This document shows positions 14,043 to 64,000 of a DNA stretch of 64,000 nt, piece after piece. The DNA comes from Eledone cirrhosa (taxonomy: Eukaryota). Under the pieces are notes generated by a model. The model ran no database searches. It was given only the letters and a program-made list of their open reading frames with translations, and had not been told where the DNA came from. The DNA is taken from assembly GCA_964016885.1 (NCBI GenBank), contig OZ024740.1, forward strand, positions 29,450,001-29,514,000, written 5' to 3'. The translations under genes were made by a program, and so were the position numbers. Position 1 is the first letter of the stretch; each line of letters opens with the position of its first letter.

Positions 14043-14134
14043 ACATATTACATATGTTTCACTGTCGATCAGCTCGAGGAACGATCTATTAATGATCGAA
14101 CCTGATTCTGGAATCAGAAGCTCCTCAGATATGT
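14043..14134 (-). ncRNA. Type I hammerhead ribozyme with branched stem II
   Basis: acatat CTGAGGA gct..agt GAAA catatg TA atatgt; stem I is 6 bp, stem III is palindromic. Confidence 0.75.
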
Positions 14135-14405: not shown

Positions 14406-14756
14406 ATTAGAAAGTGAGGTTTTTTTTTTTACAAAATGAAAAATAACCGATGTGTCCTACACGAGTGGAAGTATAAAGAAAAAGGGATGAAATCGAAAAT
14501 GCAACTGAAGTCTTATTTTTTTAAAAAATATATATATTTATTTGGTTCCTTTACCGGTTTCGCAGTTCTTCTGCTTTTCAAAAGGTGAGTTGAGATGGAG
14601 GGTCTGTGGTTTTTCTCACCACAGACCCTCCATCTCAACTCACCTTTTGAAAAGCAGAAGAACTGCGAAACCGGTAAAGGAACCAAATAAATATATATAT
14701 TTTTTTAAAAAATAAGACTTCAGTTGCATTTTCGATTTCATCCCTTTTTCTTTATA
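14406..14756. mobile_element. Perfect fold-back element (arms 14472-14610 and 14618-14756) with ~65 bp tail
   Basis: Perfect 139 bp inverted arms, 7 nt loop, an HHR in each arm, (TA)n flanks. Confidence 0.85.
14643..14680 (+). ncRNA. Minimal hammerhead ribozyme, U3-A8 core (mirror copy 14548-14585, minus)
   Basis: cctt TTGAAAA gcag aagaa ctgc GAAA ccgg TA aagg. Confidence 0.7.
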
Positions 14757-14779
14757 TATATATATATATATATATACAT

Positions 14780-14860
<81 letters not shown>

Positions 14861-14867
<7 letters not shown>

Positions 14868-16315
14868 ATACTTTGGGAGGGTCATGTTGCCAATAAGAAA
14901 CACACGCACCAGTTGCTTTCACTTCAATTTAATTTATTATATATTTATAAATTTACAAATTTATAAATTTATGGTTGGTTGGTTGGTTCCACAACCAGAT
15001 AGTTGTTTATATATATATAGTCATAGTTCTTTCGTCACACACTCTGTGACCTCTTCAGTGACTGGGGATTTCTTTCTTCGTTTCTGTGCCTTTCCTTTCT
15101 TCTATCCTACGCCATTTTGTTTGTGTATGGGTTGCGTGCTCAGTTTGCGCATGCGCCACATCCGGGTGTCTGTGTGTGTTTGTGTTCATTTTTCTATTTT
15201 TCTATTTATATTTTTCTATTTGTTTGTTTATTTATTTATTTATTGTTGGTTGGTTGTTTGTTCTATGTGTGTGTGTGTTTTCATTTTGTCTTGTGTGTGT
15301 TTTCATTTTGTGTGTGTGTTTCAATTGTAAGTTGTTTGTTCTATGTGTGTGTGTGTTTTCATTTTGTCCTTAATTGTAAGTTGTGATGTTGCTGTTCCAC
15401 TCATATTTTCTATTTAATTTTGGTTTTAATTCTTTTATGCTTACTGCCTCTGTAATTTGCCTAAACATTGCGTCTTTCTTGTGTGTGGATTCTATTTTTA
15501 TTTCTATGCTCTCTAATTTACCCCTGTGTTCTATCTTAGCATGTTGGTAGAGCACAGAATCATCTGTGCTCTACCAACATGCTAAGATAGAACACAGGGG
15601 TAAATTAGAGAGCATAGAAATAAAAATAGAATCCACACACAAGAAAGACGCAATGTTTAGGCAAATTACAGAGGCAGTAAGCATAAAAGAATTAAAACCA
15701 AAATTAAATAGAAAATATGAGTGGAACAGCAACATCACAACTTACAATTAAGGACAAAATGAAAACACACACACACATAGAACAAACAACTTACAATTGA
15801 AACACACACACAAAATGAAAACACACACAAGACAAAATGAAAACACACACACACATAGAACAAACAACCAACCAACAATAAATAAATAAATAAACAAACA
15901 AATAGAAAAATATAAATAGAAAAATAGAAAAATGAACACAAACACACACAGACACCCGGATGTGGCGCATGCGCAAACTGAGCACGCAACCCATACACAA
16001 ACAAAATGGCGTAGGATAGAAGAAAGGAAAGGCACAGAAACGAAGAAAGAAATCCCCAGTCACTGAAGAGGTCACAGAGTGTGTGACGAAAGAACTATGA
16101 CTATATATATATAAACAACTATCTGGTTGTGGAACCAACCAACCAACCATAAATTTATAAATTTGTAAATTTATAAATATATAATAAATTAAATTGAAGT
16201 GAAAGCAACTGGTGCGTGTGTTTCTTATTGGCAACATGACCCTCCCAAAGTATAACAATATCGGTTTCAACACACGATTTCAGATAAAGAATCTTGCTAA
16301 ACAAATTCAGAAACG

Positions 16316-16320
<5 letters not shown>
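14861..16320 (+). mobile_element. Penelope-derived 1.4 kb palindrome (~700 bp arms) with 60 bp tail
   Basis: Arms mirror about 15559-15562; each arm encodes a GIY-YIG C-terminal remnant (RQITEAVSIKELKPKLNRKYE) and an HHR. Confidence 0.88.
16058..16102 (+). ncRNA. Hammerhead ribozyme (mirror copy 15019-15063, minus)
   Basis: agtca CTGAAGA g gtcac agagtgt gtgac GAAA gaac TA tgact. Confidence 0.78.
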
Positions 16321-16376
<56 letters not shown>

Positions 16377-17091
16377 AACCAGTAAGACCCCGACAGCTGA
16401 GCTCAAGCCGTTTCGACGGCTAATTCTGGACTAAATGAACATTTATCCTGGTATTTAAATAGCCGATCTTCTCAAGGGGTAATTCCATATATGGTCAAAG
16501 TGATTGTCAAAAATCAGTAGTAATTCTGTGGTTGCAAATTAGTAGGGGAGATGGTGGCTAAACCTGCCAGTAGGAGAAAGAGGGGAGGGGGTGGAGTAGA
16601 CCCAATCAAGCGTTGGTAGTGCCAGCTACAGCTGGGCATGAGGTCAAAGAAGATACAGGGGAGGGGGAGGGGGAGGAAGTCGGAACGGTAGGTAGAACAA
16701 TGGGGGGTAAAAATAGGAAAGAAAAAATACTGAGAGTGAAGAAAAGCAAATAAGTGTAAAGAAAAAATTAAATTCTACGACCTAGGTGTCAGGCTATTGT
16801 TAGGCGAGAATAAAATAAAGAAAGAAAGAAAGAAGTAAATAAATAAATAAATAAATAAATAGGGAAATAAGTAAAAGAACTAATTAGGCAAGGACCCTTT
16901 TAAGAGGTATAAGTACGTAAATGATACGGTGACTGGTCAACAAAAGGGGCCAAAATACTAAAGAGACTACCACGAAATAAACAATAAAGGTTTCCATCCC
17001 GGGCCAGCAACGACCCAGTGCAGCAAAGTGAACTTGTACGACATAATAATTCTGAGTCCCGGGAAAAATATATACTAATGCTAACTCTAAA

Positions 17092-19143
17092 AGACTTAGA
17101 TGGAGAACTTTTTTCTATGACAGATATTGCGACAACCACGACTTCGGCACCAAGGAGAGATTCGGATTTATTACCTACAAATCTCCGCCCCTGAACCCCT
17201 TGCTCGCACCCTTCGAGAATGACCTCTTCCAACTGGTCAAGAACATTAAATTTAAACCCAGACACAACCGATTCCTACAAAAACTCCGTAGCAAATTAAC
17301 AGAGTATGATAACACAAATGACATCATGGTGCATTCGGATAAAACTGGGAACCTATACTTTGTCAACCCTGACAGATACCACACACTGATCAGGAGCAGC
17401 CTAAACTCCACCTATAAAAAGGCCAACCACTCTTGCATCGAGGACATAAATCGAGATGGACAACAAATCACCTCCAGCCTCGGGGTCGCCGACCGCACGG
17501 AACCTCTAGACCCACGGACACCATACTTCACACTGAAGGACCATAAATCCGATTTTGACCGTAAACCCTCCATCAGGCTTATTAACCCAACGAAGTCCGA
17601 CATAGGGAGAATCAGCAAAAAAATCCTAGACCGCGTGATACCAAAAGTCAAGCAACACACCCGACTTAGCCTATGGATCAACACCCAGGAAGTAATCTCC
17701 TGGTTCAGCAATATGGAGGATAAACGAGAAACTAAATTCATACAGTTCGACATAGAGAGCTACTATGCTTCAATCACCTTACCGCTACTTACTGCCGCCT
17801 TGGACTTCGCCGAAACACTCGTGCCCATCACCGACCAGGAAAGAAAAATCATCCTCCACGCCAGGAAGACAGTCTTACTCTTTGACGACTCTAAATGGAT
17901 AAAAAGAGCTCCCGACTCACCCTTCGACGTCAGCATGGGCGCCACGGATTCGGCGGAGGTCACTGATCTTATAGGATTATTCCTAATAGCCAAACTCACT
18001 GATATGTTTCCTGCATTCGGTGGTGGATTGTACCGTGATGATGGGCTCCTTACTCTTAAAGGGTACAACCCCAGTAGTACAGATCGGGTCCGGAAACAAT
18101 TAATCAGATCCTTCCGCGACTGGGGATTTAAAATAACCCTACAAACGTCCCTGACCCGAGTAAACTTCCTGGACGTAACCCTCGACCTCGAAAACGACCT
18201 GTACTACCCATACAGGAAACCTAATGACAATCTGCACTACATCCACCGCCGATCAAACCATCCTAGGAACATCACAAACAACCTGGTCAAAAACATCTCC
18301 CTCCGCATATCCCGTTTGTCAGCTAATGAGCGGATATTCGATGAACATGCGCCTTATTACAACCAGGCCCTCAAGCGGAGTGGTTTCCGGGAGGAAATAT
18401 CCTACTGTCCAGATCCCATTAGCGGAACCAGCAGGAGACACCGCCGCTCACGCAATGTAACATGGTTCAATCCTCCCCACAACGCAGAGGTGACTACTCC
18501 CATCGGGAAACTATTATTTAGGCTCATTGAAAAACACTTCCCATTACAACACCGCTACCACAACATAATTAACAAAAATACCATCAAACTCTCTTACAGC
18601 ACTACACCAAACTTCGCACAAAACATCGTCTCCTCTAACAACAAAAAACTCAACCCCGATGGCAGAAATAACCTAAATAGCAGTGGAGAACCGACCAGGA
18701 GGTGTAACTGCCCGGATAGATCTATTTGCCCACTCGACAATAGATGCAGAGACCGTAATGTGATCTACCAGTGCAACGTGAGGACGGATACCTCCAACAA
18801 AGCCTATATAGGACTTACCGCATGTGACTTCAAGACCCGGCTATACCAACATAGACATACCTTCCGAAACCCGGCCCGGCGTCACGCCACTACACTTTCG
18901 GGCCACATATGGGACCTCAAGGACAACAACATCACCTATGATCTCACTTGGAGATTACTGTCCAGAGCCAATTCTTACACGGGAGGACGCCGTCCGTGCA
19001 ATTTATGCTCGGAGGAAACTTTACAAATGCTGTTTTCGACGGACCAACTCCTAAACAAGAAAGATGAACTGGTTACTGCATGTAAACATAGATTGCGTAG
19101 GACTTACCTCGCCCTCAAACCCCATAATGACCCGGGGGGGTAG
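17092..19143 (+). CDS. Penelope RT + GIY-YIG endonuclease, open but lacking its N-terminal ~35 aa
   Basis: FDIESYY, MG, LYRDD, CNCPDRSICPLDNRC, VIY..YIG..FKTRLYQH; frame is open upstream of 17200 (RLRWRTFF), matching RIRWRAF in the 48801 element. Confidence 0.92.
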   Translation, partial: RLRWRTFFYDRYCDNHDFGTKERFGFITYKSPPLNPLLAPFENDLFQLVKNIKFKPRHNRFLQKLRSKLTEYDNTNDIMVHSDKTGNLYFVNPDRYHTLIRSSLNSTYKKANHSCIEDINRDGQQITSSLGVADRTEPLDPRTPYFTLKDHKSDFDRKPSIRLINPTKSDIGRISKKILDRVIPKVKQHTRLSLWINTQEVISWFSNMEDKRETKFIQFDIESYYASITLPLLTAALDFAETLVPITDQERKIILHARKTVLLFDDSKWIKRAPDSPFDVSMGATDSAEVTDLIGLFLIAKLTDMFPAFGGGLYRDDGLLTLKGYNPSSTDRVRKQLIRSFRDWGFKITLQTSLTRVNFLDVTLDLENDLYYPYRKPNDNLHYIHRRSNHPRNITNNLVKNISLRISRLSANERIFDEHAPYYNQALKRSGFREEISYCPDPISGTSRRHRRSRNVTWFNPPHNAEVTTPIGKLLFRLIEKHFPLQHRYHNIINKNTIKLSYSTTPNFAQNIVSSNNKKLNPDGRNNLNSSGEPTRRCNCPDRSICPLDNRCRDRNVIYQCNVRTDTSNKAYIGLTACDFKTRLYQHRHTFRNPARRHATTLSGHIWDLKDNNITYDLTWRLLSRANSYTGGRRPCNLCSEETLQMLFSTDQLLNKKDELVTACKHRLRRTYLALKPHNDPGG

Positions 19144-20231
19144 ACTGGGGCTATAACACCCCAGTTGCCGATTTTGCAATGGGTAACCCCTGCTTGCCAA
19201 GGAAGACGTAAGATCTTCTTTGTATTCTTTTATCGCATCCTTTATTTCCTTCCCCCCTCTCTCCTTTGTCCTTCTACCCCAGCTCTTCTCCTTTGTCGGC
19301 GTCTTTTCTCGCCCACCCGAGGCTGCCCTTTGGCCCCATGTAGCCTTAGTACCCCCACTCCCCCCTCCCCTAGTCTTTGATAGATTTGGCGGACTCCGCA
19401 CTTTATAGCAGTTGGCTTAGACCCCGGATACTTGCCCCCCTTTTCCGACCGCTCCCACTATTCTCTGTGCCCTCTATATTTCTTAGTGTCACTTATGCCT
19501 TATTTTTTCGTTTCAGTATTTCTTGCTTCGCTTTTCTTCTGGGCGGGGTGGATTCTGAACTTATTTCTCCGTATTCTACCTTTATTTCGTACGAACTTTC
19601 ATGTAGCTTGTTTTAGATCTTTTAGAGTTAGCATTAGTATATATTTTTCCCGGGACTCAGAATTATTATGTCGTACAAGTTCACTTTGCTGCACTGGGTC
19701 GTTGCTGGCCCGGGATGGAAACCTTTATTGTTTATTTCGTGGTAGTCTCTTTAGTATTTTGGCCCCTTTTGTTGACCAGTCACCGTATCATTTACGTACT
19801 TATACCTCTTAAAAGGGTCCTTGCCTAATTAGTTCTTTTACTTATTTCCCTATTTATTTATTTATTTATTTATTTACTTCTTTCTTTCTTTCTTTATTTT
19901 ATTCTCGCCTAACAATAGCCTGACACCTAGGTCGTAGAATTTAATTTTTTCTTTACACTTATTTGCTTTTCTTCACTCTCAGTATTTTTTCTTTCCTATT
20001 TTTACCCCCCATTGTTCTACCTACCGTTCCGACTTCCTCCCCCTCCCCCTCCCCTGTATCTTCTTTGACCTCATGCCCAGCTGTAGCTGGCACTACCAAC
20101 GCTTGATTGGGTCTACTCCACCCCCTCCCCTCTTTCTCCTACTGGCAGGTTTAGCCACCATCTCCCCTACTAATTTGCAACCACAGAATTACTACTGATT
20201 TTTGACAATCACTTTGACCATATATGGAATT

Positions 20232-20325
20232 ACCCCTTGAGAAGATCGGCTATTTAAATACCAGGATAAATGTTCATTTAGTCCAGAATTAGCCGTCGAA
20301 ACGGCTTGAGCTCAGCTGTCGGGGT
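20232..20325 (+). ncRNA. Hammerhead ribozyme in the pLTR, U3-A8 core (mirror copy 16387-16480, minus)
   Basis: acccc TTGAGAA gatcggcta..tagccgtc GAAA cggc ttgagctca gctg TC ggggt; predicted cut after 20320. Confidence 0.78.
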
Positions 20326-20416
20326 CTTACTGGTTCTTATTACCCACTCTACTACCTCAAGTATTGAGTACTTTGGTGCGTTATGGTCCACCTGGTTCCT
20401 TACCACATTTCCTTCG

Positions 20417-20468
<52 letters not shown>

Positions 20469-23430: not shown

Positions 23431-23523
<93 letters not shown>

Positions 23524-24195
23524 ACATTAAGATATATATATATGTATTAATGTTATGTATATATATATATATATATATATACATAACATTAATATATATA
23601 TATATATATATATAGATAGATAATTTAATATATCAACTAACATAAGTGCACAGATGCACGCCCATGCTAGCAAATACACAGGTTATGTCATAGTACCTAG
23701 GTGGTTCAATGCAGGAGAATGCAGAACAATAATATAAAAGACGTAAAATAAGAAAATATTTTTTTAAAAAAAAGTTTAAAAAATTTTTTACTTACTTAAA
23801 TTTTCACTCCAACTAATTAGTTTCTGCAATGGGATAAAGACAGTTACGTAATCCAACTGTCGAGAATTCATTGCGTCATCAGGGAGTCTATTCTCAGTTA
23901 AGTCTCCAGGCAATGCGCGGACACTGGCGGCTCATATAAAAATAATAATAATTCGGTAGATCGAACAGCTTGCGAGGACTGGATTCTATGTACCGAAATT
24001 CTCACTGCTTCAAGTCAAATGGCCGATTCTAAAGAATCAATCACGTGACACAGAGGCTAGTTAGAAGGAATGGGATGGTAAGATGACTGACGCCTACTAA
24101 CACCCCAAAAAAAAAGTTTTTTTAGAAGTGGTTTTGGCAAGTTTGCTCGACAAATCAGTGATTTGGAGATTGCCTGGAGACTTAACTGAGAATAG

Positions 24196-24277
24196 ACTCC
24201 CTGATGACGCAAGGAATTCTCGACAGTTGGATTACGTAACTGTCTTTATCCCATTGCAGAAACTAATTAGTTGGAGT
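24196..24277 (+). ncRNA. Hammerhead ribozyme (also 23806-23887, minus)
   Basis: actcc CTGATGA cgcaa..ttgca GAAA ctaattag TT ggagt. Confidence 0.8.
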
Positions 24278-24753
24278 GAAAATTTAAGTAAGTAAAAAAT
24301 TTAAAAAAAATTTTTTTTTTTAAATATTTTCTTATTTTACGTCTTTTATATTATTGTTCTGCATTCTCCTGCATTGAACCACCTAGGTACTATGACATAA
24401 CCTGTGTATTTGCTAGCATGGGCGTGCATCTGTGCACTTATGTTAGTTGATATATTAAATTATCTATATTTATCTCCAAATCACTGATTTGTCGAGCAAA
24501 CTTGCCAAAACCACTTCTAAAAAAACTTTTTTTTGGGGTGTTAGTAGGCGTCAGTCATCTTACCATCCCATTCCTTCTAACTAGCCTCTGTGTCACGTGA
24601 TTGATTCTTTAGAATCGGCCATTTGACTTGAAGCAGTGAGAATTTCGGTACATAGAATCCAGTCCTCGCAAGCTGTTCGATCTACCGAATTATTATTATT
24701 TTTATATGAGCCGCCAGTGTCCGCGCATTGCCTGGAGACTTAACTGAGAATAG

Positions 24754-24835
24754 ACTCCCTGATGACGCAATGAATTCTCGACAGTTGGATTACGTAACTG
24801 TCTTTATCCCATTGCAGAAACTAATTAGTTGGAGT
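24754..24835 (+). ncRNA. Hammerhead ribozyme, tandem copy 558 nt downstream
   Basis: actcc CTGATGA cgcaat..attgca GAAA ctaattag TT ggagt. Confidence 0.8.
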
Positions 24836-24900
24836 GAAAATTTAAGTAAGTAAAAAATTAAAAAAAATTTTTTTTTTTTAAATATTTTCTTATTTTACGT

Positions 24901-24941
<41 letters not shown>

Positions 24942-24945
<4 letters not shown>

Positions 24946-25824
24946 AATTCATATCTAGTAACATATATATACATACAGATGCATATCAATGCTAGCAAAT
25001 ATATAGGTTTTGTCTTAATAACAGTGTGGTTCAATGCATGGGGTTGCAGAACAATAATATAAGAGACGTAAAATAAGAAAATTATAAAATTAACTTACTT
25101 ACTAAAATATCACTTCCAACTAATTAGTTTCTGGAATAGAGTAAATATATTTTCCGAAGAATAATATAAAGAAGCATTCCGTCGTCAGGAAAGTCTATTC
25201 TCATGTAAGTTTGTAATTCAGTGGATAGGAAATAGCGGAGCGTGGACTGAATTCCAAGCCATTGAGAAAATCACTGCCTCTGCGTCGGTGGCAAATTCAA
25301 AAAGAATCGAACACGTGACATCGAGGTCAATCAGTGGAAAGTTATTGAGACAAAACCTATATATTTGCTAGCATTGATATGCATCTGTATGTATATATAT
25401 GTTACTAGATATGAATTCTTTATTATTATCTCCAAATTATTTGTCGAGCAATATTGGCCATGACTGCTGCTACGGTTGTAGGCAGGCCGCTGTCTTATTA
25501 GAAAACCACTTTCCACTGATTGACCTCGATGTCACGTGTTCGATTCTTTTTGAATTTGCCACAGACGTAGAGGCAGTGATTTTCTCAATGGCTTGGAATT
25601 CAGTCCACGCTTCGCTATTTCCTATCCACTGAATTATTTTTTAGTAAGTTTCCAGTGTCCTCGCTTTGCCTGGAAACTTACATGAGAATAGACTTTCCTG
25701 ACGACGGAATGCTTCTTTATATTATTCTTCGGAAAATATATTTACTCCATTCCAGAAACTAATTAGTTGGAAGTGATATTCTAGTAAGTAAGTTAATTTT
25801 ATAATTTTCTTATTTTACGTCTCT

Positions 25825-25826
<2 letters not shown>
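24942..25826. mobile_element. Retrozyme-like fold-back element, 522 bp subfamily
   Basis: Inverted arms; homologous to 61901-62767 and more distantly to 23617-24903; HHRs at 25112-25194 (-) and 25692-25774 (+). Confidence 0.83.
25692..25774 (+). ncRNA. Hammerhead ribozyme
   Basis: actttc CTGACGA cggaatg..cattcca GAAA ctaattag TT ggaagt. Confidence 0.8.
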
Positions 25827-25898
<72 letters not shown>

Positions 25899-25899
<1 letters not shown>

Positions 25900-29404: not shown

Positions 29405-29455
29405 GGCTTCCTGATGATTTCTCCCGAATGAAACAGTTCTAGTCCTGTAGAAGCC
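29405..29455 (+). ncRNA. Minimal hammerhead ribozyme in a ~130 bp mini-element (29401-29530)
   Basis: ggcttc CTGATGA tttctcccgaat GAAA cag ttctagtc ctg TA gaagcc; same family at 61041 and 61423. Confidence 0.8.
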
Positions 29456-29909
29456 ATTTCTATATTAAATATTTATACTCTGCTATGTATTGAGTACCTT
29501 ATTTACTGTGGTTACTCTGGATTGAACCCGTACTGTGAGCTCTACATGTAATAAGCAGCTTTCAATACAAAAGAGACAGTCTTGAAATAAAAGATGAAAC
29601 CCATTAAAAAGAAAAAGGAATTCATTAATTAATAACCCAATCTTTAGTAGCTAACCTCAATATAGTGTTCATTAGGTAAGGTGACCATGTCTTGCTCATA
29701 CAATGTCGAACTTTCTCTTCACCTGCCCATATAAATTGTTTTCTTGAAAAACAGAGTGCAGAGTCGGAAAGAATACTGCGTTTGCCGCCTTCTTACAAAG
29801 TAGGTAGAAGTCAATATGGAAGAGATAATCTAAATTAAATCAGAAACCAGCAACAAAGATTGAAGGTGGAAGTTAACGGTGATCATTTGAATAATATTGT
29901 ACAAGATGC

Positions 29910-30033: not shown

Positions 30034-30140
30034 TGTGTTTATATACTTATATATTTTTTATATTTTTTTCTTCCTTCAGCCTCACTTTCATATTTCTTAT
30101 ATTTTTGTTTTCAAATCCACATTCAATAAAAACACCAGGA

Positions 30141-30206
30141 TTGTTTCGTTCTGACGACTGAAAGCAGATTTGTTTGCTTTCAAGAAACCACTGGTAAATG
30201 AAATAA
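30141..30206 (+). ncRNA. Hammerhead ribozyme
   Basis: ttgtttcgtt CTGACGA c tgaaagcaga tttg tttgctttca a GAAA ccactgg TA aatgaaataa; stems I and II are 10 bp each. Confidence 0.8.
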
Positions 30207-30263
30207 TTATCTTGTGTTGCTTATTACATAATTATATATATATAACGCATACTTATATATGAC

Positions 30264-30959: not shown

Positions 30960-31551
30960 CGGGCTGTTTGGTTGTTTACAAACAAACCGAGCATTATAAT
31001 AAATGTTCGGTAAACCCATACGTACATATATATATGTGTGTGCATGTATGTATATATATACATACTACTGTACGTCTGTATACATATATGTATGTACGTA
31101 TACATACATACATACTTACATTTAAGTAACTGCCGTACTCAGAGTGAGAAATGAAATTTCGTTTCATTCTTTTCCATTTATCGTTTTCGGTGCGCCGGCC
31201 GACTAACTCACTCGATATGCAAATTAGGCTGCTCAGCCGTTAATCTGCATAAGGAAAGTATATACTTTCAGACGTTCAACCATCTGACAAAGGTATACGA
31301 TGCTGACGATAGCTAATAAGCTTGAAACTAGTACATCGTTCCTGTGTCAGTGTTGAGCAAAAAGGTGACGATGGTTGCCTGAACACTGTACGGCATAATT
31401 CGGGCTGTTTGTTTACAAACAAACCGAGCATTATAATAAATGTTCGGTAAACCCATACGTACATATATATATGTGTGCATGTATGTATATATATACATAC
31501 TACTGTACGTCTGTATACATATATCTATGTACGTATACATACATACTTACA
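30960..31551 (+). repeat. ~160 bp direct repeat (30960-31120 and 31401-31551)
   Basis: cgggctgttt..aaacaaaccgagcattataataaatgttcgg appears twice. Confidence 0.85.
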
Positions 31552-44075: not shown

Positions 44076-45413
44076 ATTATTGGAGCTACGGGTTATATAC
44101 CAACCCGCTTGGACCAAAGTATGACTGAACTTAGATTTGCGGACAAAGAGCGCCACTCCCTAATTCATAGTCTACAAATGGCTGCGATAGCTGGCACCTT
44201 CAAGATTTGCAAAACATTCTTGCGATTCAAGGGATGACAATTTCTTTTCTTTTACAACCTTGCCACCAGGAAGGTGGCCGGTCAAAAAATATATACTCGA
44301 AATTAAGAGAAAGAGATAACATACATATGACATACAAACATACATACATACATACATACATACATACATACATACACGGTGGCTGCCAACTCGTTTTCGA
44401 GTACGGCCACTACTTTATATCCATGTAGGAGATCCCCTACCGATGTGCTGAACGAGTGTGACTTTTTAGCCCAGCCAACGACTTGAAAACTCTGGTACAA
44501 ACACTACACTTGTGACAATTATTGACACATAGTGCTGGGCCCATGGTACCATGTGACGACAAGTGTAGAGAGATCAGAGATCTCCAGATATAAAGCAATG
44601 CCTGTGCCGTGAAGCTTTTATAGTGAGCAAAGGCACTGCACAAAGCCAGTCCCACTCTCTTAACCAAGATGATATTTACCAAAAAGAAGAACAAGTCAAC
44701 ATCATTGGATACCATCAGGGTTGCAGGTGTTATATCAGAGTTTTCCTTCTCCTAGTATTCTGCCTTAACAAAGGCTAAGGGGTCATCTCTCATACATACA
44801 TACATACATACATGCATACATGATGGCTGCCCCCTCGTTATCGAGTATGGCCATTGCAGGAGGAGAAAGAAAAAAAAAATAATAATAATGATAAATAAAT
44901 AAAAAGAAAATAAAAATTAAAAAAAAATATATATATATATACAATATTAAATAAATGGAAACTATATTTATAAAACCATATTTATTTCATTATATATATT
45001 TCAGGGATATCATATTAACAATATGCTATGCCTTCCTCAGACAAAATACAATATAAACAGTTTTATAGATAAATAGATTTGACATACCGTAACAACATCG
45101 ACTTGTATTTGAAAAAGTTGAATTGGCAGTGAAAAAATTGTACACAGAGAGAAAGAAAGAGAGAAAAAAGGAAAGAAAGACAGAAAACGAAGAAAAAGAA
45201 GAAAAAGAAGAAATGCATGGAACAAAATAGAGAGATGGAAAGATAGATAAAGAGAAGAACTTCATGTAAAGAAACAGAGAGAGAGATATATATATATAGA
45301 AAGAGAGGAAATAGAGATAGATATATATATATAGAAAACTAGGTAGTGGGACGTCCGTTGAGTAAACGTATCAATGATACATTTATTTATTTATTTATTT
45401 AGCTCTAGTATTA

Positions 45414-45596
45414 ATTGTTTCTACTTTAGGCACAAGGCCAGCAATTACCAGTGCATTACTGGTACTTTATTTTATCGACCCCGTAAGGATGAAAGGCAAA
45501 GTCAACCTCGGCGGGATTTGAACTCAGATGGTAAAGGGACGTAACTACGCTGGAAAGCATGGCGTCCGACCCTCTACCGATATTGCCAATCCACCG
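45414..45596 (-). mobile_element. SINE inserted in one pLTR copy
   Basis: Absent from the copies at ~49416 and ~50625. Confidence 0.9.
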
Positions 45597-46582
45597 GGAG
45601 ATATATGGAGAGAAACCAGCTGTTATATAGAGAGAAAAATTTAAAAATAACCAGACATAGGCGAGGCGTAAAAACCCTATGTTTTAATGTAGAGGCATTA
45701 GTATGTATAAAAACCAGCCACTATATTGTAAATATCAGTATTCCTGAATGAGACATGTATCCATAATGTGTGAAAAGTAATGATCTTATGTTTAGTTTTT
45801 TAAAAAATTCATATGTTTATGTGATAACTACAAACATCTATATGAATTTACATGATCAACTCTGCAAACCCTAAGTTTACGGAAAACATTCTCATTGTGG
45901 TATAAAAATTTAAGTATACATATATGTGTATATATATACACACACAAATATATATAGAGTCAATATTACTACTATTCCTGTCTTTACTCTACAAGATTAT
46001 CTATCAAGCAGAAATAGAGAGCAGATTTCAATATACTAATAAAAATATATATCAGAAACAAAACTAAAAAATTAAAAAATAACAATAATAATAATAAGTA
46101 ATAATAAAATAGAAAACTAAAAAATATTACGAAAGAATATTACATATTAAAAATATTACATATTAAAAATATTAAAAATAAAAATATTAGAAATATTAGA
46201 AAATACTACAATAATAAAAATAAAAATAAACCACAAAGATCAACCCTTCAAAATTAATTGACAATATATTGCCAAGTTCATTATAAGCATCAGAGTCGAA
46301 AAACAGATAAAGCCAAAAATTATCTATCAAATCGCATCTAGCAAAGATCATTTCAAAAAGTTTAGGATGCCCATTTGGTCTACATGTGTTCTTATATTTA
46401 ATATAGAAGTTTATCTAGTGTAACGTTTATTCGAAATATTTGGAGCATCAACTTTTAGGGTAGCTTAATTTTTCATGAAGAATGTTTAAATAAAAATAAA
46501 AAGAAAAAGAAAAAGAATAAAAAGAAGAAATCAAAGATTTATCGGCTAGTTTCCCATATAATTATAAATCAAACTAAATATA

Positions 46583-48801
46583 CTACATTTTAAATTTAAA
46601 TTTATATTTAAACGTTGAGTTTAATCTATGTTTGCAGCAACTGAATAAATTTGTCCGTAGATTAAGGGAATTTTTAGATTTTAGTATAAAGAATATTTCC
46701 TCTGCGCAGAGGTCACATGTCTCAGAGGATGAATTAAAAGGAATCCCTCTTGAGACTATATTCCAAGCCGTCGAATATCTAACGTTATCTAGCTTAAGTT
46801 GCCAGAGTACGCCTGATAGTGCCGTTGAAGATTTTTTGCTTGGATCTGTGAAAGAATTCTTGTGGTTATTATAGCGAAGTTTAAATTCCGTCGATGTGGA
46901 ACCGACGTAGTTAAAAGAATTAGAGTCAGTATTAACATTACAATTGTATACTATATTTTTAACTAAGCAGTTGTTATTTAACGGACATTTAGATCTATCT
47001 CTACAGTTACATTTGTTAACTTGTATATTATTTATGCTATTATCACTAGGTTTTAAGTTCCTATTATTTATTCTATTAATATTTTGTGCTAAATTTTTGG
47101 TGGATGAGTAGGTTAATTTTATTGTATGTCTATTGAAAATTGAGTGATACCTATGTGTTCTAGGGAAGCGATTATCAAGAGCTTTAAAAAATAGTTTAGC
47201 GATGTGGGTTTTAATGTTTAGTGAGAAAGGGGGGGGGGGGCAAACCAAATTATGTTCCTAGTTCTATTTCTTTTTTGGCCTTTGGAATTATTGTAATGCT
47301 TTCTATTATAGTTGTTAAGGTTGTTGCCGTAATTAAAATAGTTGTTATTTTGTTTAGTTTGTCTATCATTATCTATGTACACAATCTTATCAGCATATCC
47401 TGCTCTAGCTAATGCTTCATTGTAGTATTGGGCTTTTTCGTCGAAAATCTTTCTATTCGACGAGATCCTAGAGATACGTTTTTGAAGAGAGTTTACTATA
47501 GTGTTTTTGACAGATCTGGGGTGGTTAGAGTTAAAGTTGACATAGTTTAAGTTTTCATTCAACTTGTGAAAAGGATAGTGAAGACATGTGTTGAGATTTA
47601 ATGTTATATCTAGGAAATTGACTATTCTATGGTTGTTCTCAATTTCTATTTTAAGATTAAAGTAATTAAAAAATTGTGTAATTTGTTTACATTTTCTATT
47701 TAGTTCAGAGTTATTATTATCAATAAGTAAAAGCATGTCATCTCTATATAAACCTCCGGTAGTACCAGGTATTTTCCTATGTAGCGAATTGATTAAAAAT
47801 AAGCCCACAAGGTCAGTTACCTGAGCTGAGTCAGATGATCCCATAGTAATGTCAAAATTGCTATCTCTATCTGCTCTGGTCCATAGTTGGTCATTAAATT
47901 CTATCAAAGTTTTCCTAGCCGATAATATAATATGCATTTCATTGCTAGTTAGGTCAGTATGTTTGAATGCGTAATTTAGTGCCTTATTTAGTAGATTAGG
48001 GGTAATAGAAGAATAATAGTTAGCTATATCAAGTTGAATAAACTTATTATTATTGTTATATTTAATTTGCTTAAACCACTCAACAACCTCTCCAGTTCCC
48101 TTCCACAAGCTCAGGTTAGATAAACAATCCAAGTTCTTAATTTGCTGTATCACCCTGTCAAGAATGTTTTTGCTTAATTTGCCCAGGTCCGATTTTGATG
48201 GTGCGATCAATCTAACTGGCAAGTCATTTTCAAAATTCCTCTTGTGATCTTTCATATTGATCTTCGGTTTCCTGGGCACGAAAGGTTGTGTTCTGTTCTC
48301 AATTTCCAACTCGTGCATTATACAAGATGCTTCGACATTCATTTTCTCAAGCTCGGCCTTATCTGCTACCTTGTACTTTTTCCTCAGCTCCTTCAGTATG
48401 AGGCCATTATACATGTCTTTCTGCACTCCATAGAGGTTGTTGGTCTTGTCAGATTTCACCAAGATCTTCTCAGTTTTCTCTAAGCTCTCAATGTTATCCT
48501 TAATGCCTTTCAGATATTCCTGGCCTTTGAAGTTTCTCTTGAATTTGACCCCTTGTATGATAGAAATTATATCGTTTTCAAAGTCAGATAAAAGTTTGTT
48601 AGGGGGTGGATTTCTTTTAGATTTGAAAACTTTGTTTAAGTCCGAGACATTTTCATTTATATTAGATTTATCAAAGTGGAATGCTCGCCACCTGATTCTC
48701 CTTATAAAAGAGTCAGATTTATCTATTAATTGTTTTATAAAGTCTTTGTTTCTAGGTAGAGGTATGTCTTTTAAAGAGGAAGTAATCTTAAATAATTCCA
48801 T
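46583..48801 (-). CDS. Penelope RT + GIY-YIG; single frameshift in the G-run 47228-47241
   Basis: LDIANYY, LYRDD, CNCRDRSKCPLNNNC, IVY..YVG..FKLRYNNH; collinear with the 17200 ORF. Confidence 0.9.
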
Positions 48802-50738
48802 TTTTCCAGTTATAATATAAAGCGCTCAACAGTATTGGAGCAAGATACATGGAAAGTTATATTTAAATTGTTGGGTTACAACTAGTAAATATTTATAACT
48901 GATATAAAAGCACTCGACAAGTATTTGGAGTATATTTACAATATTAAATAAATGGAAACTATATTTATAAAACCATATTTATTTCATTATATATATTTCA
49001 GGGATATCATATTAACAATATGCTATGCCTTCCTCAGACAAAATACAATATAAACAGTTTTATAGATAAATAGATTTGACATACCGTAACAACATCGACT
49101 TGTATTTGAAAAAGTTGAATTGGCAGTGAAAAAATTGTACACAGAGAGAAAGAAAGAGAGAAAAAAGGAAAGAAAGACAGAAAACGAAGAAAAAGAAGAA
49201 AAAGAAGAAATGCACGGAACAAAATAGAGAGATGGAAAGATAGATAAAGAGAAGAACTTCATGTAAAGAAACAGAGATATATATATATATAGAGAGAGAG
49301 AGAGGAAATAGAGATAGATATATATATATAGAAAACTAGGTAGTGGGACGTCCGTTGAGTAAACGTATCAATGATACATTTATTTATTTATTTATTTATT
49401 TAGCTCTAGTATTAATGTAAGGGAGATATATGGAGAGAAACCAGCTGTTATATAGAGAGAAAAATTTAAAAATAACCAGACATAGGCGAGGCGTAAATAC
49501 CCTATGTTTTAATGTAGAGGCATTAGTATTAAAATTAGTATTAAAATTCCCTTAATCTACGGACAAATTTATTCAGTTGCTGCAAACATAGATTAAACTC
49601 AACGTTTAAATATAAATTTAAATTTAAAATGTAGTATATTTAGTTTGATTTATAATTATATGGGAAACTAGCCGATAAATCTTTGATTTCTTCTTTTTAT
49701 TCTTTTTCTTTTTCTTTTTATTTTTATTTAAACATTCTTCATGAAAAATTAAGCTACCCTAAAAGTTGATGCTCCAAATATTTCGAATAAACGTTACACT
49801 AGATAAACTTCTATATTAAATATAAGAACACGTGTAGACCAAATGGGCATCCTAAACTTTTTGAAATGATCTTTGCTAGATGCGATTTGATAGATAATTT
49901 TTGGCTTTATCTGTTTTTCGACTCTGATGCTTATAATGAACTTGGCAATATATTGTCAATTAATTTTGAAGGGTTGATCTTTGTGGTTTATTTTTATTTT
50001 TATTATTGTAGTATTTTCTAATATTTCTAATATTTTTATTTTTAATATTTTTAATATGTAATATTTTTAATATGTAATATTCTTTCGTAATATTTTTTAG
50101 TTTTCTATTTTATTATTACTTATTATTATTATTGTTATTTTTTAATTTTTTAGTTTTGTTTCTGATATATATTTTTATTAGTATATTGAAATCTGCTCTC
50201 TATTTCTGCTTGATAGATAATCTTGTAGAGTAAAGACAGGAATAGTAGTAATATTGACTCTATATATATTTGTGTGTGTATATATATACACATATATGTA
50301 TACTTAAATTTTTATACCACAATGAGAATGTTTTCCGTGAACTTAGGGTTTGCAGAGTTGATCATGTAAATTCACATAGATGTTTGTAGTTATCACATAA
50401 ACATATGAATTTTTTAAAAAAACTAAACATAAGATCATTACTTTTCACACATTATGGATACATGTCTCATTCAGGAATACTGATATTTACAATATAGTGG
50501 CTGGTTTTTATACATACTAATGCCTCTACATTAAAACATAGGGTTTTTACGCCTCGCCTATGTCTGGTTATTTTTAAATTTTTCTCTCTATATAACAGCT
50601 GGTTTCTCTCCATATATCTCCCTTACATTAATACTAGAGCTAAATAAATAAATAAATAAATAAATGTATCATTGATACGTTTACTCAACGGACGTCCCAC
50701 TACCTAGTTTTCTATATATATATATCTATCTCTATTTC

Positions 50739-50770
<32 letters not shown>

Positions 50771-50999
50771 CTGTTTCTTTACATGAAGTTCTTCTCTTTA
50801 TCTATCTTTCCATCTCTCTATTTTGTTCCATGCATTTCTTCTTTTTCTTCTTTTTCTTCGTTTTCTGTCTTTCTTTCCTTTTTTCTCTCTTTCTTTCTCT
50901 CTGTGTACAATTTTTTCACTGCCAATTCAACTCTTTCAAATACAAGTCGATGTTGTTACGGTATGTCAAATCTATTTATCTATAAAACTGTTTATATTG

Positions 51000-51065
51000 T
51001 ATTTTGTCTGAGGAAGGCATAGCATATTGTTAATATGATATCCCTGAAATATATATAATGAAATA
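51000..51065 (+). ncRNA. Hammerhead ribozyme (copies at 44983-45048 and 48980-49045, minus)
   Basis: tattttgt CTGAGGA agg..cct GAAA tatata TA atgaaata. Confidence 0.75.
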
Positions 51066-51192
51066 AATATGGTTTTATAAATATAGTTTCCATTTATTTA
51101 ATATTGTAAATATACTCCAAATACTTGTCGAGTGCTTTTATATCAGTTATAAATATTTACTAGTTGTAACCCAACAATTTAAATATAACTTT

Positions 51193-51233
<41 letters not shown>

Positions 51234-61040: not shown

Positions 61041-61230
61041 TATTTAATATAGAAAGTCTTCTACAGGACTAGAACTGTTTCATTCGGGAGAAATCATCAG
61101 GCTTCCTGATGATTTCTCCCGAATATAACAGTTCTAGTCCTGTAGAAGCCTTTCTATATTAAATATTTATACTGTGCTTTGTATTGAGTACCTTACTTAC
61201 TGTGGTTACCCCCGATTGAACCCGGGATAT
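61041..61230 (+). mobile_element. Mini fold-back HHR element (29405 family)
   Basis: Inverted HHR pair about 61102 plus tail. Confidence 0.8.
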
Positions 61231-61231
61231 A

Positions 61232-61404
<173 letters not shown>

Positions 61405-61422
61405 ATATATATGTATATATAT

Positions 61423-61606
61423 AAGAGCTTCTACAGGACTAGAACTGTTTCATTTGTGAGAAATCATCAGGAAGCTTCTTGATGATTTCTCACGAATGAA
61501 ACAGTTCTAGTCCTGTAGAAGCTCTTCTATATTAAAACATTTATACTCTGCTATGTATTGATTATCTTACTTACTGTGGTTACCTCCGATTCAACCCGGA
61601 ATAACT
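61423..61606 (+). mobile_element. Mini fold-back HHR element; intact HHR at 61426-61476 (-)
   Basis: agcttc CTGATGA tttctcacaaat GAAA cagttctagtcctg TA gaagct. Confidence 0.8.
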
Positions 61607-61782
61607 TATATATATATATATTGTTATACTTGGGAAGAGTCATATTGTTGTAATATTACAAGAAATAATAACAGAACACACTCACTGTTTGGTTGGTTTT
61701 CACTTCTGTATCTTTCATATCTCCATAGTTAATTTATTTGGCAAACAATGTTTATCAGTGATTGACCGATATACAGATATAA

Positions 61783-62969
<1,187 letters not shown>

Positions 62970-63579: not shown

Positions 63580-63861
63580 ACCGATAAAATAAAGTACCAG
63601 TATACGCTGGGATAATTGCTGGCCTTGTGCGAAAAGTAGAAACAATTATTATTATTATTATTATTGGTTTCTTATATAGGCACAAGGCCAGCAATTTTGG
63701 GGGAGAGCAAAGTCGATTAAATCGACCCCAGTGCATGACTGGTACTTTATTTCATCCTTACGGAGTCGATAAAATAAAGTACCAGTCACGCACTGGGGTC
63801 GATTTAATCGACTTTCTCCTTTCACAAAATTGCTGGCCTTGTGCCTATATAAAAAACAATT
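63580..63861. mobile_element. SINE 3' fragments, including an inverted pair (63664-63861)
   Basis: gataaaataaagtaccag..ttgctggccttgtgc in both orientations. Confidence 0.75.
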
Positions 63862-64000
63862 ATTATTATTATTATTTCTTTCTGCTTAATACTACACCTC
63901 TATACTTACAGGAAACTATGCATCGAGTGCTCACTCTGGTGAACCCATAGTAACTGGTCGTTATGATCCCTAAATATATATATACACACACATCGGTCTT

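Follow-up and report, generated by a model that had tools for sequence, protein, structure and literature searches.

Three loci in a 64,000-nt stretch of the Eledone cirrhosa genome (contig OZ024740.1, positions 29,450,001 to 29,514,000 of the forward strand; this whole stretch is referred to in the following as the window) consist of a non-coding repeat unit with one predicted hammerhead ribozyme per monomer. The locus raises the question of what kind of element this is, and how it is copied and inserted. An earlier analysis from the letters alone, referred to in the following as the sequence-only reading, had proposed a viroid-sized circular RNA parasite, possibly undescribed in this lineage, mobilised by resident Penelope enzymes. 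By testable sequence criteria, the repeat is a real, large retrozyme family, and its class has already been described (PMC7229834; bioRxiv 10.64898/2026.07.22.740005). Its main interest is the rule by which insertions end, together with an end hairpin common to non-coding and coding families.

A dispersed, high-copy family of non-coding units

An 18-mer from the ribozyme core had 12,272 exact matches in the 3.0-Gb genome and its reversed control had none, showing that the ribozyme motif did not arise by chance. The hairpin sequence at the long site, described below, matched 6,116 times (control 0). The first 100 core matches fell into 61 places, which extrapolates to a total of roughly 7,500 loci. 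The repeat is thus a dispersed, high-copy mobile family, and it co-occurs with Penelope-like elements (PLEs) in the genome. It was also found as contigs in four other public runs, which show presence only, so the family is not an artefact of this assembly. No phage match was found.

Monomers taken from cut to cut (n = 22) were 522–571 nt long, collinear and 67–100% identical. The window contains two subfamilies, A with a period of 558 nt and B with the 522-nt period given in the sequence-only reading, which is also the cut-to-cut length of the monomer in locus 3. Aligned to each other, the A and B monomers share 362 identical columns out of 566. Protein-coding capacity is absent, as had been claimed: the longest ATG ORF per circularised monomer was 27–67 aa in all 22, and the unit gave no tblastn match to the PLE proteins of the window. 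Circular folds of the sense strand scored z = −4.1 to −6.4 against shuffles in the three monomers tested and were also better than those of the antisense strand. Inside the unit, at about 320–335 (window 24590–24606), lies a conserved palindrome, GTCACGTGA, which we take to be E-box-like and a possible internal promoter element. The features of the window are listed in Table 1.

Table 1. Insertions, ribozymes, end hairpins and coding elements in the window (positions are those of the window).
Feature	Position	Strand	Remarks
Insertion 1, left arm	23610..24170	-	single full unit; ends at long (L) site in (TA)n
Insertion 1, right arm	24169..24909	+	unit 455-558, one full monomer and 1-79; ends at short (S) site in (TA)n
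Subfamily A monomer	24273..24830	+	558 nt, non-coding, cut to cut
Type I hammerhead	24196..24277	+	predicted cut after 24272 (GUU)
Type I hammerhead	24754..24835	+	predicted cut after 24830; C.A opposition at base of long helix II; helix III is the 10-nt palindrome ACUAAUUAGU
Predicted Watson-Crick loop 1-loop 2 contact	24746..24779	+	GAGAAU 24746-24751 / AUUCUC 24774-24779; weak
Left-arm hammerhead of insertion 1	23806..23887	-	predicted cut 23811
Bulged hairpin just 3' of S site	24356..24379	+	S near 24351
Bulged hairpin just 3' of L site	24474..24496	+	L near 24469; includes atctccaaat
"Tail" between the two fixed ends	24352..24469	+	about 120 nt
Insertion 2 (subfamily B), left arm	24939..25342	-	ends at L; hammerhead 25112-25194, predicted cut 25118
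Insertion 2, right arm	25338..25829	+	ends at S; hammerhead 25692-25774, predicted cut after 25768
Insertion 3 (subfamily B), left arm	61898..62659	-	ends at L; 522-nt monomer 62077-62598; hammerhead 62072-62151, predicted cut 62077
Insertion 3, short right arm	62651..62772	+	ends at S; only 3' half of hammerhead
(TA)n target tract common to insertions 1 and 2	24903..24942	.	
Further (TA)n tracts	23431-23633, 25825-25899, 61769-61901, 62769-62965		
PLE1, coding Penelope-like element	16372..20420	+	inverted arm ends at short site, body at long site; tail about 80 nt; candidate mobiliser
PLE2, coding Penelope-like element	44934..51200	-	frameshifted in window; tail about 90 nt; candidate mobiliser

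The hammerhead ribozyme

The two cuts that the sequence-only reading had placed 558 nt apart, at 24272 and 24830, were reproduced by a scan for type I hammerheads (H17 positions), and the ctaattag palindrome and the stem sequences were as it had described them. A search with covariance models, which it had proposed as a check, found no Rfam hammerhead in the whole window or in the isolated ribozyme; the matches returned were to microRNA models, at palindromes and microsatellites. The length of helix II, about 50 nt, is the probable reason for the missing hammerhead match.

We aligned 31 copies, chosen by eye for diversity from the genome match list. Helix II was 98.9% paired, with two compensating pairs and one pair occurring in four types, and its distal extension had two-sided changes in 5 of 7 pairs. 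The covariation score of helix II was reached by 0 of 500 shuffles and by none of the slid controls, which were only 33–53% paired, a signal that is inflated by the relatedness of the copies. The covariation between subfamilies that had been read from the window thus held for helix II, where the changes are compensatory, but the pair actcc/ggagt versus actttc/ggaagt proved to be an indel plus a wobble. In the aligned copies A9 is followed by C and G12 preceded by A, the triplet is GUU, and the palindrome ACUAAUUAGU would form a 10-bp dimer helix. The copies were selected with a pattern that contained both palindrome and triplet, whose invariance is therefore no evidence.

A Watson–Crick contact between the internal loops of helices I and II is suggestive only. 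The predicted pairing of loop 1 with loop 2 was present in 94% of cells, with two-sided changes in 2 of 5 pairs and a change from G-C to A-U in four related copies; a related 517-nt unit has a different but complementary loop pair. In the predicted best fold of the A ribozyme the core is paired with the palindrome, which counts against activity, whereas the B ribozyme folds as a hammerhead. Among frog retrozymes, only one of nine predicted ones cleaved in vitro (bioRxiv 10.64898/2026.07.22.740005).

With the PLE-associated hammerheads (PMC4209133) the ribozyme has in common its type I core, a long helix II, the conserved G10.1–C11.1, a palindromic helix III that would suit dimers, and the extra base after A9; the last two are typical of that group. 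It differs in the additional A before G12 (the C.A opposition), the GUU triplet, the predicted Watson–Crick loop contact and a helix II that is about 50 nt long and contains an internal loop. Other families are represented in the window by further hammerhead motifs at 14043–14134, 30139–30208 and 31297–31339, the second of which likewise has C.A at the base of helix II.

Each insertion ends at one short and one long site

Self-BLAST showed that each of the three loci consists of two inverted, outward-facing arms. The tandem monomers of the sequence-only reading do exist as independent copies, one arm having about 12 units (one arm reaches 6.9 kb), but the three loci are not simple tandems. The downstream ends of the arms are fixed, at a short site S (unit position ~79 in A, ~61 in B) or a long site L (~200 in A, ~180 in B), the two being about 120 nt apart. 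Both ends are TAT-like and run into (TA)n, which would mask any target-site duplication, and the upstream ends are variable. What had been described as circular permutation of the units is better explained by internal start sites of reverse transcription. Similarly, the unit's 3' end had been said to read into its own start at atctccaaat; this stretch does follow the tail in 3 of 3 loci, but it belongs to the hairpin at the L site and is not the start of the element.

Arms were typed in 108 loci: the 3 in the window, the 19 best A and 28 best B matches, and 58 taken in order along C1, this number being what remained once 10 overlapping loci and 1 duplicate had been removed. Two inverted arms were present in about 60% of the sampled insertions. 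There were 67 two-arm insertions; both ends could be assigned in 59, all of which were S+L (59/59), with no case of S+S or L+L, and the remaining 8 had one end disrupted. In the position-ordered sample, 28 of 35 two-arm insertions were assignable and all were S+L. The single-arm copies of that sample comprised 14 with an L and 11 with an S end, indicating that each site works alone. The inner junctions varied freely, some being short palindromes or overlaps. Upstream ends were enriched in the first 30 nt past the cut (9 of 75, 2.1 expected, p = 2.5e-4), with one exactly at the cut (L135); a cleaved 5' end would give such a cluster, but so could stalling where helix I begins on its 3' side, or the A/T runs.

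Ends in (TA)n also occur in four coding elements (PLE1, PLE2, PLE3 and PLE6) and in two other closed non-coding units. In the window, long fold-back palindromes of other repeats were seen at 14472–14756, 14752–16375 (about 1.6 kb) and 63634–63887.

A predicted bulged hairpin downstream of the ends

Each end is followed by a bulged hairpin with the pattern YUC-stem-loop-stem-UN-GAR. By a strict rule, the hairpin is present at S as well as at L in 17 of the 22 monomers, compared with 0.14 per shuffled monomer; counting three monomers with one extra match elsewhere, it is found at S in 20/22 (two lack an S match) and at L in 22/22. By a relaxed rule, 13 of the 14 ends that were mapped have the hairpin at +4 to +9 (11 of 12 when A and B are counted together), over a background of 1.3–2.8% per 10-nt window, the rule having been derived from these same sequences and relaxed afterwards, so that it is partly post hoc. 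The mapped ends bearing the hairpin include those of four coding Penelope-like families. Six sites were examined after the motif had been noticed: two passed the strict rule, namely the long site of PLE1, which had been predicted beforehand, and the D long site; five passed the relaxed rule, and the long site of PLE3 failed. The hairpins alone had no extra stability over shuffles (z −0.1 to −1.4). The closest in sequence to the unit's long-site hairpin is that at the short site of PLE2. The letters in Fig. S1 of PMC11167929 include a UUC...UUGAA stretch, which we treat as a lead only.

Two more closed non-coding hammerhead units with the same layout and similar short-site hairpins were encountered, of 517 nt (L050:5630–6230, minus strand) and 483 nt (L233, a two-arm short/long insertion). 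L050 had been considered as a coding relative and was rejected, being a closed 517-nt non-coding unit.

Coding Penelope-like elements and the search for a parent

The layout of the non-coding family, with two arms and a short and a long site, recurs in PLE1 and PLE2. PLE2 is young and abundant, with 120 scored genome matches at 96–100%, many of them with 745-aa open frames, and PLE1 copies are near-identical genome-wide. The PLE1 and PLE2 proteins had no match in Pfam, NCBIfam or PDB. The coding PLEs of the window contain YRDD, DKT, CxC and Y(I/V)G motifs, and on these and on general PLE features we take the elements to be Penelope-like.

Three genome-wide patterns joining the hairpin or tail to a PLE N-terminal motif gave 1, 7 and 11 matches and no coding parent with the family's tail, the patterns being blind to any parent without a K(N/D)IP motif. 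The single match of the first corresponds to PLE2's own leader. The 7 matches, and those of the 11 that marked new places, turned out to be tails that run out in (TA)n, a single chance fusion amplified in tandem, or family E. Beyond the hairpin motif, the unit had no convincing alignment to the ends of PLE1, PLE2 or PLE3, the sole score above the null, B against PLE2, being a gappy AT-rich match that ends in the hairpin. Five tandem matches on C4 were rejected as a parent: they belong to a 2.5-kb tandem array of at least 5 copies (L237–L241, G000:C4:38.10 Mb), in which one subfamily-B insertion is joined to an unrelated piece of sequence, an endonuclease fragment from another PLE. Also rejected as a clue to the partner was a chimera (L138:300–1864) in which a subfamily-B arm meets the 3' part of coding PLE6 with no (TA)n between them; both of its outer ends are long sites.

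Other features of the coding elements were observed. The PLE1 hammerhead (about 20225–20325) has a U3–A8 core in place of C3–G8, a variant known from PMC4209133. A third hammerhead family (window 29405–29530 and 61043–61620; L205) is the end of coding PLE3 and has a long site without the hairpin. L209 (G000:C1:67.88 Mb) is a ~221-nt tandem deletion derivative of PLE3 with about 3 units, in which ribozyme, tail and ORF start are joined to the 3' end; it is apparently a retrozyme that arose from a coding PLE.

Proposed mechanism and alternatives

With a probability of roughly three in four, we read the repeat as a non-coding hammerhead family residing in (TA)n, likely a retrozyme that depends for its copying on a Penelope-like reverse transcriptase/GIY-YIG enzyme, with internal starts at S and L. 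A Penelope mobiliser had been part of the sequence-only reading, and three features that recur in coding PLEs, two of which lie in the window, speak for it: insertion into (TA)n, a pair of fixed ends, and the hairpin that follows them. No coding parent was found. A transcript longer than one unit would be bound by the enzyme at the hairpins. The (TA)n would be nicked, its 3' end would pair with the TAT-like stretch, and cDNA would be primed 4–9 nt upstream of a hairpin. Where both target strands are primed, one would use S and the other L, a pairing to be expected if an enzyme dimer holds both hairpins of one RNA. The two cDNAs would then join head to head at microhomologies. The hammerhead is likely slow and would cleave as a dimer through its palindrome, freeing an RNA 5' end. 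A PLE protein has been reported to nick both strands and extend them, starting at two sites inside the RNA between which the tail lies, and a dimer was predicted (PMC11167929). Two results of that work count against the model: in vitro the start sites did not differ between the strands, and cleavage by the ribozyme could be dispensed with. In Penelope elements, the tail is often or optionally on one end only (PMC8557442, PMC3846280).

The variants within the arrays bear on the nature of the template. Units and arms inside one insertion differed by 0.7–0.8%, compared with 1.3% between insertions, and insertion-specific variants common to both arms were found in L034, L035, L037, L039 and L087. 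Among the seven longest arrays, L034, L035 and L037 had one haplotype over both arms apart from single-unit changes; in the other four (L031/32, L033, L036 and L045) some variants occurred in part of the units or in one arm, with a period-3 repeat in L031/32. These partly common variants argue against a single monomer circle, as variants confined to some units would need a multimeric template, two RNAs or later crossover. The cut site was crossed by both arms in 19 of the 35 two-arm insertions of the ordered sample. The template must hold an intact cut-site junction, and would therefore be a ligated circle or an uncleaved multimer. We give RNA circles as the template slightly less than even odds. 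The same PLE-driven insertion could instead use a linear, mostly uncleaved multimer, with the ribozyme trimming the 5' end or near idle and no circle formed; we regard this as falling just short of a coin toss. It would account for the partly common variants and the period-3 repeat, though common variants can arise by later unequal crossover, and for the upstream ends after the cut, a cluster equally open to the stalling and A/T-run explanations given above. Unprocessed RNA was the dominant substrate in PMC11167929, whereas circular forms predominate among the retrozymes of mussel, coral and axolotl (PMC7229834), and arms of up to about 12 units and the uniform two-arm haplotypes of L034 and L035 also speak against a linear template.

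Two further explanations would dispense with an independent retrozyme or with a second target-primed start. If the unit were nothing more than a coding Penelope's pLTR and tail, and its copies 5'-truncated stumps, the match of its architecture to PLE ends (PMC8557442, PMC3846280) would follow; frog retrozymes do come from pLTRs (bioRxiv 10.64898/2026.07.22.740005), and PLE3 gave rise to the tandem derivative L209. We consider this very improbable, given that 22 of 22 cut-to-cut monomers close on themselves without an ORF, and that neither the parent patterns, which cover parents with a K(N/D)IP motif, nor the alignments to the ends of PLE1, PLE2 and PLE3 led to a coding parent. Inverted arms could also come from a satellite, through self-priming fold-back, DNA rearrangement or misassembly. 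For inverted PLE junctions, an antisense template that primes itself has been proposed (PMC3846280), and some junctions here are short palindromes or overlaps. Fold-back, however, does not predict the constant S+L pairing of the outer ends next to inner junctions that vary, and the contigs from other public runs speak against misassembly. We rate this group of explanations as unlikely by a wide measure.

Relation to known elements and significance

In common with metazoan non-LTR retrozymes (PMC7229834; bioRxiv 10.64898/2026.07.22.740005), the family has tandem non-coding units with one type I hammerhead each, low GC, structure and thousands of copies, alongside PLEs. Its unit size lies inside the 51–972 bp range of the 2026 survey (bioRxiv 10.64898/2026.07.22.740005). 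The circles tested in those studies were of 170–400 nt, and the present unit is larger. Inverted arms that end at fixed S and L sites within (TA)n are a feature of this family that the consulted parts of those sources do not describe, and no homologous coding pLTR was found here. A search of mainly open-access literature returned no description of the family, of strict S/L pairing or of the end hairpin.

Like EN+ Penelope-like elements (PMC8557442, PMC3846280, PMC11167929), the family forms partial tandems with a truncated arm in inverted orientation, has its tail on one end, inserts into AT-rich or (TA)n sequence and has a hammerhead upstream of the two ends. It has no RT/GIY-YIG ORF and is thus not an autonomous PLE. 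The tail is 30–40 bp there and about 120 nt here, and the one-end-only pattern is strict here. In PAc, initiation has been described as lying inside an AC-rich stem loop, whereas here a bulged hairpin is repeated just 3' of each end.

The origin of Penelope inverted repeats and one-sided tails was named as open in PMC8557442 and partly answered in PMC11167929, and the priming of retrozymes was hypothetical in PMC7229834. The strict rule of one short and one long end, with a cis hairpin in coding and non-coding families alike, makes both questions directly testable with a 250-nt RNA, and rule and hairpin together provide homology-independent sequence evidence for a retrozyme using PLE machinery. 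A more general proposal, which we put forward tentatively and hold to be rather doubtful, is that Penelope enzymes integrate as a dimer gripping two copies of one bulged RNA hairpin, priming one strand each and copying both ways; the family would then be a minimal circular parasite, a ribozyme and two hairpins, rolled into multi-unit arms. If this is true, the spacing of the hairpins would set the length of the tail, and the inverted repeats and one-sided tails of Penelope elements in general would be explained.
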